32,000 nucleotides of DNA, from contig OY780959.1 of assembly GCA_963675915.1 (NCBI GenBank), positions 180,001-212,000 of the forward strand, written 5' to 3'. This document shows, piece after piece, positions 14,330 through 17,657 of this stretch (the first letter of the stretch is position 1; every line of letters starts with the position of its first letter). Made by a program: the position numbers and the translations under genes. The DNA is from Coprobacillaceae bacterium. GTDB lineage: Bacteria; Bacillota_I; Bacilli_A; Erysipelotrichales; Coprobacillaceae. The notes below the pieces were generated by a model. It did not search any database. It was not told where the DNA came from and saw nothing but the letters and a program-made list of their open reading frames with translations.

Positions 14330-15136
14330 ATGAAATTCAAATCAATTAACGGAAGTATTGGTATTGTTGTGTGCTCGTTATTATTATCAGGATGTTCAAG
14401 CGAGGAACCTTTGGGAGAAAATGAGTTAAGAATTGCCGATGCGTCAAAGAGCTATGAGGGTGAGGATTATGAGGATGTTGTTGCGAGATTAGAAGATAAT
14501 GGGTTTTATAATATCGAAACGGAGACGATAGAGGATTTAATAACCGGCTGGCTAACAAAAGATGGAGAGGTAGAATCGATCTCAGTTGGTGGTGAAATGG
14601 AATTTGATGATGGGGATATCTTCACAAAGGATGCTACCGTAATAATCACTTATCATACATTTAAAGACAGTGGTTCAAATGAAGCTGGAGATTCAATCGA
14701 AAATGAATCGTCATCTAATGATGCTATAAATTTTGATGGATACACTTTGATTGAGGTTAATGGTGGGGATTTGTCAGGTGATAGAAAGCCGAACGCTGTT
14801 GTTGACGTAGGATTTGGAGAACGTGAATACTGGGCTTTTACAAATGAATATGGTCAACTGGTAAAAGTGATCGCAGATGAAATTATCTTGCAGGATGACT
14901 CATCTGAGCCTGTGAACAGTGATGGGAGGTACTATGATGATGAAGCGAAGGTACCCGGTACTGAAAGCCCTGATTTAGATGAGGGTCATGTCATTGCGGA
15001 TAGTCTTGGTGGTGTATCCAATGCTTATAATATTACTCCTCAGGATAGTACTCTTAATCGGTACGGTGATCAAGCTTATATGGAAAAGGTAATTCGTGAT
15101 GCAGGGGGACGTTTTTATGGCATCGGTAACTGGTAG
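14330..15136 (+). CDS. Lipoprotein with a C-terminal beta-beta-alpha-Me (DNA/RNA non-specific, EndoNS_2-like) nuclease domain; the C-terminus may be truncated
   Basis: Lipobox LLLSGC. Nuclease motif DEGHVIADSLGG...NITPQDSTLNRYG..AYME. Only about 10 aa follow the last conserved block before the stop. Confidence 0.65.
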   Translation: MKFKSINGSIGIVVCSLLLSGCSSEEPLGENELRIADASKSYEGEDYEDVVARLEDNGFYNIETETIEDLITGWLTKDGEVESISVGGEMEFDDGDIFTKDATVIITYHTFKDSGSNEAGDSIENESSSNDAINFDGYTLIEVNGGDLSGDRKPNAVVDVGFGEREYWAFTNEYGQLVKVIADEIILQDDSSEPVNSDGRYYDDEAKVPGTESPDLDEGHVIADSLGGVSNAYNITPQDSTLNRYGDQAYMEKVIRDAGGRFYGIGNW

Positions 15137-15953
15137 GATAAAACAAATCAAGCAACCTAGGGGAGGGTTCGTTAAACCATCTGAGTTTAAAGTTGTAATT
15201 GAAAAAGACAATGGTGAATTGAATCCGAAAGAAAATATTCATGGTACTATAGTGGGTATGGCTGTTGATTATCTCACAAGGTTTTCAATGGGAACTGATA
15301 TACTTGAATCATTTAAAATATCAATTCGCGGCGCTGCCATCGCAGAGCAACTTGGAGTTGAAGGATCTGTGAATATTGCAGCTAACCTTGTGGATGGTAT
15401 AAACGGTCTTGATGAAGAGTCTATCATTAATGCCTGTAAACTTGTAGCATTCGACGTATGGCTCAGAAATCCTTTGGGAGCCATGATGGCAAAAGACTAC
15501 AAATCAATAAATCCAGATGAAGCAACGGTGCAAAATATCCATACTCTTGTTATCCGCAGTATTGATTTTTTTCAAAAATATGGCCCGATAACAAAAGATG
15601 GATTTACCTTTGAACCACCTGGATCAGATATAGAAGATTTTGCAAAAATAATGAAATCAAATGAAGGTGTTTTGGGCGGATACACTTCTACTGTAGAATC
15701 AGGTGATGGAGATTTTCTGACCTCAGATACCCTTTGGGATTTTAAAGTATCTAAGTCAAAGCCAACAAATAAGCACACGTTACAATTATTGATGTATTGG
15801 ATAATGGGCCAGCACTCTGGTCAGGAAGCATTTCGTGGTATTACAAAGTTGGGAATATTCAATCCGCGCCTAAATACGGTTTACTTGCTGGATATGGCAG
15901 ATGTATCTCAAGAAATAATTGAAGCTGTAGAGGATGAAGTAATATGTTATTAA
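15117..15953 (+). CDS. PD-(D/E)XK (RecB/Cas4-like) nuclease-fold protein, 278 aa
   Basis: AGGGGGA RBS before ATG 15117. The motif series GDGDF, LWDFKVSK and QLLMYW matches the D / (D/E)xK / QxxxY pattern. Overlaps the upstream ORF by 20 nt. Confidence 0.6.
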   Translation: MASVTGRIKQIKQPRGGFVKPSEFKVVIEKDNGELNPKENIHGTIVGMAVDYLTRFSMGTDILESFKISIRGAAIAEQLGVEGSVNIAANLVDGINGLDEESIINACKLVAFDVWLRNPLGAMMAKDYKSINPDEATVQNIHTLVIRSIDFFQKYGPITKDGFTFEPPGSDIEDFAKIMKSNEGVLGGYTSTVESGDGDFLTSDTLWDFKVSKSKPTNKHTLQLLMYWIMGQHSGQEAFRGITKLGIFNPRLNTVYLLDMADVSQEIIEAVEDEVICY

Positions 15954-15996
15954 TGTATCTAATGATAGTAGTTAGTACAGAAGAGGGGAATAAATA

Positions 15997-16923
15997 ATGC
16001 CAAAGTTAGGAAAAATTGAAAAGGTAGATGATTTGCGTACAATTTGGAAGCGTGAAGCACTCGATTTTACAAAGTGGTTAGCAAGGGAAGAAAATCTTGA
16101 AATATTGAGTGATTCGATTGGAATTGAGATTGTTCTTGAGGAGACCGAGTCATCCGTTGGAAACTTTAATGTTGACTTGTATGCTACTGAAGAGGGGACA
16201 GGAAGGAATATCATAATCGAGAATCAGCTCGAAGACACTGATCACGACCATTTGGGTAAGCTTATCACTTATGCTTCTGGTAAAGGTGCTGAAGTTGTTG
16301 TTTGGATAGTAAAAAGAGCAAGAGATGAGCATAAGCAAGCAATTGAATGGCTTAATCAACATACGGATGAGAATGTAGGATTTTTTCTTCTTGAAATTCA
16401 GTTATGGAAGATAGATGAATCACTACCAGCTCCAAGATTTAACGTTGTTGAGAGACCAAATGATTGGGCAAAAACAATGAAAGCTGTCAGTGGGTTATCT
16501 GATACTAAGAAATTACATTTGGAGTATTGGGATGCTTTTAATGAGTATGCTTTCAACAAGCCTGAGTTTAAACGCGTGTTTTCAAAACGTAAGCCTCAAC
16601 CGCAAAATTGGTATGATTTGAGTGTTGGGAGTTCTTCTTACAGAATTGCAATTTCGGCAAGTACACAAAAGAAGCGACTGGGTGCTGAGATATACATAAA
16701 TGATGATAAGGAATTGTACGAAAAATTCAAAAATTCCAAAGCGTCTATTGAAGCGGAACTCGGATTGGAACTTCAATGGATCGAGGCTTCAAAAGATTGT
16801 CGTATTTTTGCAGCGATTAAAGGTGATATCAAGAGTGGAAATTCTAAGTGGAATGATTACTTTGATTGGTACTGCGACATGGCGTTAAAACTCAAGGATA
16901 TCATTCGAAAGTATGATGCTTGA
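15997..16923 (+). CDS. Nuclease-fold N-terminal domain plus a DUF4268-like C-terminal domain, 308 aa
   Basis: The segment VDLYA...[22 protein letters not shown] is a signature remembered from DUF4268-family proteins. GAGGGGA RBS. Confidence 0.55.
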   Translation: [308 protein letters not shown]

Positions 16924-17003
16924 CGATATATACCAGTGTTGTTTTACCTGAGTAATATTGAAAGAAAATGTTAGTGAATTTGTTGAGAAGGAGTAATATC
17001 GTA

Positions 17004-17657
17004 ATGATGATTCATCCACAAATGTATTATGATAATAATTTGAAAGGTAACAATGAAAAGGAGTTGATGACTGCTATTCGCGGATTGAAACAGAGAATAG
17101 GCCGTCTAAAAAACAGTATCGAGAATCCGGATCTGATTAGGGTTTATATGCAACCAAGGGCTTCGCTACAGATAAAGCTCATGCGCGAATACCTTGAGAT
17201 GGCGAAGCGAGCGTATCGTGAAGCTGGTGGTGTTTATACTCCCTCTAAGGCTGAACTGAAAGTCATTGATTTCGATGGTAATATTTCAGAAATTGCGAAG
17301 ATAACCTTTTCTATTGGCGGATACTTTAACGGCTACGAGACATACGTCATTGATTTCGGTGAGACGGAGGTTCACATTGAAAAACGGCATAGCTTGAAAG
17401 ATCCAGAATTATCCACTGAGAATGATCGGATTTTTGATAAACAATCGTTTACTGAGGGGTTAAGAGATCTGCACATTGGCGAATGGAGAAGAGGGTATTC
17501 GACCGAACGTTTCGGATATAGGGTGCTCGATGGTACGCAATGGGAACTGGAGTTTGAATACCAAATTGGGCATAAGCATTTTCGATTTTCAGGGAGCAAC
17601 TCGTATCCGTATAATTTTGATGAATTTCAAGTGTTGTTTGGCATCGAATTTCTATAG
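17004..17657 (+). CDS. Hypothetical protein (217 aa), last gene of the nuclease cluster
   Basis: GAAGGAG RBS before ATGATG at 17004. No recognisable motif. Confidence 0.5.
   Translation: MMIHPQMYYDNNLKGNNEKELMTAIRGLKQRIGRLKNSIENPDLIRVYMQPRASLQIKLMREYLEMAKRAYREAGGVYTPSKAELKVIDFDGNISEIAKITFSIGGYFNGYETYVIDFGETEVHIEKRHSLKDPELSTENDRIFDKQSFTEGLRDLHIGEWRRGYSTERFGYRVLDGTQWELEFEYQIGHKHFRFSGSNSYPYNFDEFQVLFGIEFL

Follow-up and report, generated by a model that had tools for sequence, protein, structure and literature searches.

A tightly packed nuclease gene cluster in a Coprobacillaceae defence island is probably a mosaic of single-gene modules

We analysed a cluster of four genes, here called genes 1 to 4, in a stretch of 32,000 nt from a Coprobacillaceae bacterium (GenBank assembly GCA_963675915.1, contig OY780959.1, positions 180,001 to 212,000 of the forward strand), hereafter called the window. 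An original prediction, made from the sequence alone, had described the cluster as a row of three different nuclease folds plus one protein without assignable motif and had suggested that genes 2 to 4 may form one unit. Our results point instead to a defence islet of mosaic structure in which the genes act independently, a reading that we consider probable. The families of genes 2, 3 and 4 are not linked in related loci. Genes 2 and 3 add new members to candidate families that are already catalogued, gene 1 is what remains of a gene for a secreted nuclease, and only gene 4 is a true unknown in the cluster. The features on which the analysis is based are the following.

14330–15136, + strand: gene 1, lipoprotein of 268 amino acids (aa) with a His-Me finger (Endonuclea_NS_2) domain, 3′-truncated (Pfam and homologue alignment)
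15107–15116, + strand: boundary at which the stump of gene 1 meets the cassette of gene 2 (end of homology at codon 260, sequence reading)
15117–15953, + strand: gene 2, stand-alone PDC-S61 candidate defence protein with C-terminal RecB-like PD-(D/E)xK motifs (PADLOC, alignment A2)
15997–16461, + strand: N-terminal domain of gene 3, NucS/EndoMS-like PD-(D/E)xK nuclease (AlphaFold model, Foldseek, alignment A4)
16513–16923, + strand: C-terminal domain of gene 3, DUF4268, putative DNA or modification recognition module (Pfam)
17004–17657, + strand: gene 4, protein of 217 aa, divergent member of its family (family search, structure model)
14101–14128, + strand: intrinsic-terminator-like hairpin that ends the upstream lipoprotein gene and marks the left edge of the gene 1 transcription unit

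The joint occurrence of the families was followed in 149 related loci, comprising 59 genome loci centred on gene 4 (up to 8 kb on each side), 80 metagenome loci centred on gene 2 and 10 loci centred on gene 3. Flanks of more than 1.5 kb were available for 52 of the 80 gene-2 loci on the upstream side and for 56 on the downstream side. Linkage was tested by tblastn and by profile hidden Markov models (HMMs) built from the alignments of this analysis, and the results agreed. By tblastn, none of the 59 gene-4 loci contained a relative of gene 1 or gene 2 or a close relative of gene 3; the HMMs added two distant DUF4268 proteins. Relatives of gene 1, 3 or 4 were absent from all gene-2 loci (0/80), as were relatives of gene 2 or 4 from all gene-3 loci (0/10), and no two of the gene 2, 3 and 4 families were adjacent in any of the 149 loci. 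Gene 2 had no conserved neighbour, the best real neighbour family being a housekeeping gene present in 12 of 80 loci, and relatives of gene 2 were found alone and monocistronic on Bacillus plasmids. Relatives of gene 3 likewise stood alone between PNPase/S15 and polysaccharide genes, while others were located in defence-like islands together with a PLD-SNF2 helicase, a Macro-domain protein, UvrD or PLDc_2. The PADLOC models for genes 2 and 3 each describe a single-gene candidate. Hence, the 278-, 308- and 217-aa protein families do not travel together, and the proposal that genes 2 to 4 form one unit was not borne out; independent scatter of the homologues was the very outcome that the original prediction had named as speaking against it.

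At the level of gene structure the original prediction was accurate. The open reading frame (ORF) list contains four co-oriented ORFs between 14330 and 17657, with a 20-nt overlap between genes 1 and 2, a 43-nt gap between genes 2 and 3 and an 80-nt gap between genes 3 and 4, and every motif that had been quoted was found in the sequence. Judged by their homologues, which number from ~1,300 for gene 4 to more than 7,400 for gene 3, all four ORFs are real genes. The ATG at 15117 (MASVTGR) as start of gene 2 is backed by the full-length alignment of its homologues, with an upstream GTG at 15096 also open, and of the two start candidates of gene 4, 16968 and 17004, the homologue alignment fixes the latter (MMIHP, 217 aa). 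Genes 2, 3 and 4 each possess a Shine-Dalgarno sequence of their own. The hairpin at 14101–14128 was the sole terminator-like site detected in the interval 13300–19000, none being found in the scan between 14128 and 19000. Together with the tight packing, this makes co-transcription of the four genes plausible, presumably from the promoter of gene 1 near 14270; a promoter scan was uninformative (24 sites found versus 22.6 expected). None of the four proteins had a match in NCBIfam, and PDB sequence searches with genes 2, 3 and 4 gave no meaningful match. The four-gene combination is a one-off, because none of the four proteins clusters with another sequence at 90% identity and the synteny was seen nowhere else.

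The product of gene 1 carries a signal peptide and a lipobox (LLSGC) and passes the Pfam Endonuclea_NS_2 threshold of 27 bits with a score of 29.1. The match spans profile positions 52–96 of 132 and ends 11 residues before the end of the protein, so that positions 97–132 are absent and the catalytic domain is incomplete. A search of 1.84 billion representative proteins yielded 2,595 relatives; in the best 150 of these, which were inspected, the match ends at aa 258–263 of gene 1, and the relatives run on for another ~90–150 residues. In alignment A5, gene 1 tracks its family up to YMEKVIRDAGG (aa 260) and then reads RFYGIGNW followed by a stop codon, whereas all six full-length relatives continue with the block C.DF.A.ITYPDT.TQIPS.Y.YTY..G..I.DEF.N.NPD. 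This block is encoded in no frame anywhere in the window. Gene 1 thus shares the signal peptide, the lipobox and the DEGH...N...N His-Me core with the secreted or lipoprotein non-specific DNA/RNA nucleases of the Endonuclea_NS_2 type but, unlike its full-length relatives, is missing the last third of the domain, a conserved part, as well as the entire tail. Of the lipoprotein with a C-terminal beta-beta-alpha-Me nuclease that had been predicted here, the lipobox and the nuclease core were confirmed, but not an intact nuclease. Gene 1 is a 3′-truncated remnant whose 3′ end was apparently replaced by incoming DNA, and its product is probably inactive. This agrees with the earlier suggestion that the exported nuclease may be functionally separate from the other genes.

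The homology of gene 1 breaks at about nt 15109, 7 nt ahead of the ATG of gene 2, and the Shine-Dalgarno sequence of gene 2 (AGGGGGA) coincides with the A-G-G codons of gene 1. Elsewhere, the DNA upstream of gene 2 homologues is AT-rich and non-coding. No repeats flanking an insertion were found above matches of chance size, and an empty site was not visible, the contigs with the closest full-length gene 1 homologue being too short. A frameshift that would restore gene 1 or fuse it to gene 2 was considered and rejected, since the gene 2 homologues all begin with MASVTGR and the lost C-terminus is found in no frame of the window. The N-terminal domain of gene 1 (aa 13–132, 14330–14730), a unit of ~85 aa that occurs in up to seven tandem copies in other proteins, matches phrog_29396 and has no Pfam model.

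Gene 2 (278 aa) matched the PADLOC model PDC-S61 over its full length (E = 1.2e-105, aa 1–278 on profile positions 1–250 of 253), and its residues 192–267 matched RTasPDDEXK, the PADLOC profile of a DRT-associated PD-(D/E)xK nuclease (E = 1.4e-10); there was no match in Pfam or NCBIfam. In the family search, 3,581 members with a length of ~278 aa were detected. The PD-(D/E)XK motif series of RecB-Cas4 type that the original prediction had read in this protein held up, with motifs II, III and QxxxY invariant in alignment A2 (D199 within GDGDF, D208-F-K210 and Q223xxxY227). Gene 2 therefore has the same D...D-x-K...QxxxY series as the RecB/Cas4-type PD-(D/E)xK nucleases. In contrast to Cas4, it lacks the four conserved cysteines of the iron-sulphur cluster, C107 being its only cysteine that is invariant in A2, and it possesses an unrelated N-terminal region of 190 aa; gene 2 would be at most a fold-level relative of Cas4. 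Like the PADLOC single-gene candidate PDC-S61, it stands alone. It differs from other PDC-S61 genes in that its own upstream region was lost and it sits fused behind a truncated nuclease gene. A PDC-S61 gene has been listed in a defence island of Streptococcus thermophilus (PMC11514479), and the PDC families are mostly single-gene candidates proposed from 'guilt-by-embedding', most of them unvalidated (PMC12988326).

Gene 3 as a whole (15997–16923, 308 aa) matched the PADLOC model PDC-S11 over its full length (E = 2e-119) and belongs to a family with more than 7,400 relatives in many phyla. The C-terminal DUF4268 domain, which the original prediction had named, was confirmed by Pfam at aa 173–306 (E = 1.2e-29). 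In the AlphaFold model (predicted local distance difference test, pLDDT, 84), the N-terminal domain superposes on the catalytic domain of NucS/EndoMS: Foldseek returned 5gke_A and 2vld with probability 1.00 and a root mean square deviation of 2.7–3.4 Å over 100–115 columns; the whole-chain E-values were marginal (2e-3 to 1e-2). SfsA, EcoT38I and a CdiA-CT toxin, all of the PD-(D/E)xK superfamily, matched this domain as well. The strand order of the model fits the canonical alpha-beta-beta-beta-alpha-beta core, with D60 on strand 2 and E75-N-Q77 on strand 3 at the canonical positions; the third catalytic residue is Q77 and not the canonical K. Residues E49, E51, D60, E75, N76, Q77, E79, H83 and H85 are invariant in alignment A4. 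Since genes 2 and 3 thus belong to one superfamily, the cluster contains two nuclease folds in three families and not three different folds as had been predicted.

In contrast to NucS, gene 3 lacks the N-terminal DNA-binding domain and has DUF4268 instead, the modelled fold of which resembles ExsC/YbjN chaperone-like proteins. A phage-borne relative of gene 3 is annotated as RloF, a name used for restriction-linked ORFs. Type IV enzymes of the GmrSD group are known to carry DUF4268 as an additional domain (PMC4619093). The DUF4268 nucleases MdgA and MdgB, which work as single genes, protect E. coli against T4 but not against the unmodified T4-GT7, and their activity is lost in catalytic mutants; purified MdgA degrades T4 DNA, and the mutant MdgA E77A is inactive (PMC12366544). 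Gene 3 is likewise a single-gene nuclease with DUF4268, and its invariant E75 may correspond to E77 of MdgA, an equivalence by position alone. MdgA was reported to have no homology to known defences (PMC12366544, Cell Host Microbe 2025); it may therefore belong to another DUF4268 architecture than gene 3. The principle proposed for gene 3, a module recognising modified DNA joined to a nuclease and no cognate methylase, resembles that of the GmrSD and McrBC type IV enzymes, but gene 3 has neither DUF262/DUF1524 nor the McrB GTPase or McrC, and its architecture is different and much smaller. By analogy with MdgA and MdgB, modification-dependent restriction most likely is the function of gene 3, which we regard as a lead.

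For gene 4 there was no match in Pfam, NCBIfam or PADLOC, the sole match being an unannotated PHROG, and no nuclease motif was evident. Its structure model was confident (pLDDT 82, predicted template modelling score 0.77) and had no structural match in the PDB or BFVD by Foldseek. The earlier statement that no motif could be assigned to the 217-aa protein thus agrees with our results. The family comprises 1,307 members of ~225 aa, all annotated as hypothetical, with a mean column identity of 82% across Bacillota and Bacteroidota; the gene 4 of the window is an outlier at 55–58% and lacks the acidic tail of the family. Usually, the gene resides in a module beside a large serine recombinase, consisting of a Cro/C1 helix-turn-helix (HTH) gene, gene 4, DUF6508 and a 326-aa protein; among the 59 gene-4 loci, the HTH gene was present in 39, DUF6508 in 29 and the 326-aa protein in 35. 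None of these partners was found in the window. This module, in which most gene 4 relatives sit, was seen in L001–L045 (e.g. L026, 6666–10071; L010, 8001–9084). Its protein identity of ~82% across Bacillota and Bacteroidota points to a mobile element that has travelled widely and in recent time.

Divergent relatives of gene 4 were found in other surroundings. On the Clostridium butyricum megaplasmid pCFSA3989 (L153, record 712480–728728), a relative with 48% identity is located 30 nt 3′ of mcrC and just upstream of a 1,211-aa Upx-like gene; the island around it also encodes two Dam-type methylases. In L047, a relative is flanked by an AAA_5+McrBC pair on one side and a DrmD/DpdE-like helicase on the other, and in L048 and L057 the gene comes after a type I hsdR and a type I methylase, respectively. 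Genes for NucS_C+DUF4268 (L049, 1622–2728) and GmrSD_C+DUF4268 (L008, 10690–11682) each lie 2–2.4 kb from a gene 4 relative. Divergent gene 4 relatives were thus located in defence islands and, as described above, some relatives of gene 3 in defence-like ones. In L008 DUF4268 is fused to GmrSD_C, a nuclease of the His-Me type, and in L049 to NucS_C, of the PD-(D/E)xK type; DUF4268 is thus a portable module, exchanged between nucleases of different types. Recurrence beside methylase-less restriction genes gives a modest chance that gene 4 modulates them. Accordingly, there is some small likelihood that gene 4 represents an undescribed defence-island family, either an accessory or modulator of methylase-less restriction nucleases, such as gene 3 in the window and McrBC in other loci, or new defence or anti-defence cargo of a widespread serine-recombinase element.

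The observations on gene 4 bear on an explanation in which genes 3 and 4 constitute a two-gene unit, with gene 4 as an accessory of a modification-dependent nuclease, for example a sensor, regulator or self-protection factor. The 80-nt gap and the common strand fit such a unit, as do the gene 4 relatives 30 nt behind mcrC in C. butyricum and after the AAA_5+McrBC pair in L047, and the NucS_C+DUF4268 (L049) and GmrSD_C+DUF4268 (L008) proteins that lie at most 2–2.4 kb from gene 4 relatives. Nevertheless, 57 of the 59 gene-4 loci had no DUF4268 protein nearby, and most of the family accompanies the HTH (39/59), DUF6508 (29/59) and 326-aa (35/59) genes by the serine recombinase. Conversely, a gene 4 relative was present in none of the 10 gene-3 loci, relatives of gene 3 occur alone, and the published DUF4268 nucleases act as single genes, so that we regard a gene 3/gene 4 unit as unlikely. 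The wider proposal of the original prediction, a new three-gene defence system of two nucleases and a third component, could draw on the tight co-oriented packing with no internal terminator and on the defence-island setting. It was largely refuted by the linkage tests (families co-occurring in 0 of 149 related loci); PADLOC treats both gene 2 and gene 3 as candidates that act singly, the contexts of the three families are variable and independent of one another, and we consider it highly improbable.

A different kind of explanation is that these nucleases serve housekeeping or mobile-element maintenance, such as NucS-like mismatch repair or recombination, and that the defence labels reflect their location. 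It is true that the PDC labels are predictions, mostly unvalidated, that the nuclease domain of gene 3 resembles the repair enzyme NucS/EndoMS, and that gene 2 is found beside integrases and recombinases on plasmids. But gene 3 lacks the N-terminal domain of NucS and has DUF4268, a domain associated with type IV restriction and with the defence phenotypes of MdgA and MdgB; the families are patchy, with singleton sequences in variable islands, unlike core repair genes; and a type I restriction-modification (R-M) system is present in the same island. A non-defence role of this kind is thus very doubtful. Several points weigh against the preferred explanation, the islet of independently acting genes, as well. 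Our literature search found no anti-phage demonstration for any PDC-S61 or PDC-S11 member, the nuclease fold of gene 2 is assigned by motifs and profile only, and gene 3 was compared with MdgA by published description. Only 10 loci, representing 3 distinct contexts, were centred on gene 3, which is a small sample. Furthermore, the genes are tightly packed with no terminator between 14128 and 19000 and probably co-transcribed, and co-expression would allow cooperation. Finally, the recurrence of divergent gene 4 relatives behind restriction genes (McrBC, type I) or near DUF4268 nucleases may indicate a loose functional tie between gene 4 and restriction nucleases.

The surroundings of the cluster contain the other elements of the island named in the original prediction, i.e. 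an R-M system, an insertion sequence (IS) element and a recombinase, identified as a type I R-M system (hsdR 2216–5272, hsdS 5282–6529, hsdM 6572–8179), an IS66 element and a resolvase. The interpretation as a defence or conflict locus is supported by these elements, by a tRNA gene cluster and by the full-length matches of genes 2 and 3 to PADLOC candidate-defence models, and this gene combination is indeed not a named multi-gene defence system. With the type I R-M genes, the IS66 element and the tRNA cluster next to it, the locus is an ordinary defence-island mosaic. Following hsdM in the same orientation are an unannotated ORF of 185 aa (8238–8795) and a gene that combines a SEC-C motif with a RES domain (8903–9877); the two possibly represent cargo linked to restriction or a toxin module. 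The IS66-type element (10153–12406, − strand) is complete, with ORFs of 97, 119 and 523 aa, and separates the R-M block from the resolvase. Downstream of gene 4, a lipoprotein gene (17711–18865) with two DUF5780 domains contains an internal duplication (copies 17953–18252 and 18478–18777) of at least 300 nt, 100% identical and spaced by 525 nt; because of this identity, the duplication is taken to be either very recent or under homogenisation. Six tRNA genes clustered at 20607–21110 (− strand) form the right boundary of the island and likely mark an integration hotspot. Beyond them, T-box leaders at 22766–22976 and 25145–25354 (+ strand) precede housekeeping genes.

We propose that single-gene modules accumulated inside this island and that the 3′ end of gene 1 was replaced upon arrival of the downstream DNA. 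The stump of gene 1 would now mainly supply a promoter and a ribosome-binding site. From its motifs and its embedding in a defence island, the RecB-like PD-(D/E)xK domain of gene 2 most likely cuts invading DNA alone. Gene 3 most likely acts as a type IV-like restriction enzyme, in which DUF4268 would recognise modified phage DNA and the NucS-like domain would cut it. Gene 4 would be separate, a resident of mobile elements and defence islands that landed beside gene 3. Anti-phage activity, the dependence of gene 3 on DNA modification and joint transcription from the gene 1 promoter are inferred.

The cluster overall is largely ordinary. It illustrates that tightly packed, co-oriented nuclease genes in a defence island do not amount to an operon-level system and may, as here, be a stack of single-gene modules. 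A route by which such a stack can form is suggested by the cassette that landed in a secreted nuclease gene and appears to borrow the ribosome-binding site of that gene. Gene 3 provides a clean Bacillota example of the DUF4268 nuclease group, recently linked to defence against phages with modified DNA, and a test case for modification-dependent restriction. The family of gene 4, large, highly conserved and mobile, with neither annotation nor known fold, is a reasonable candidate for defence and anti-defence screening.

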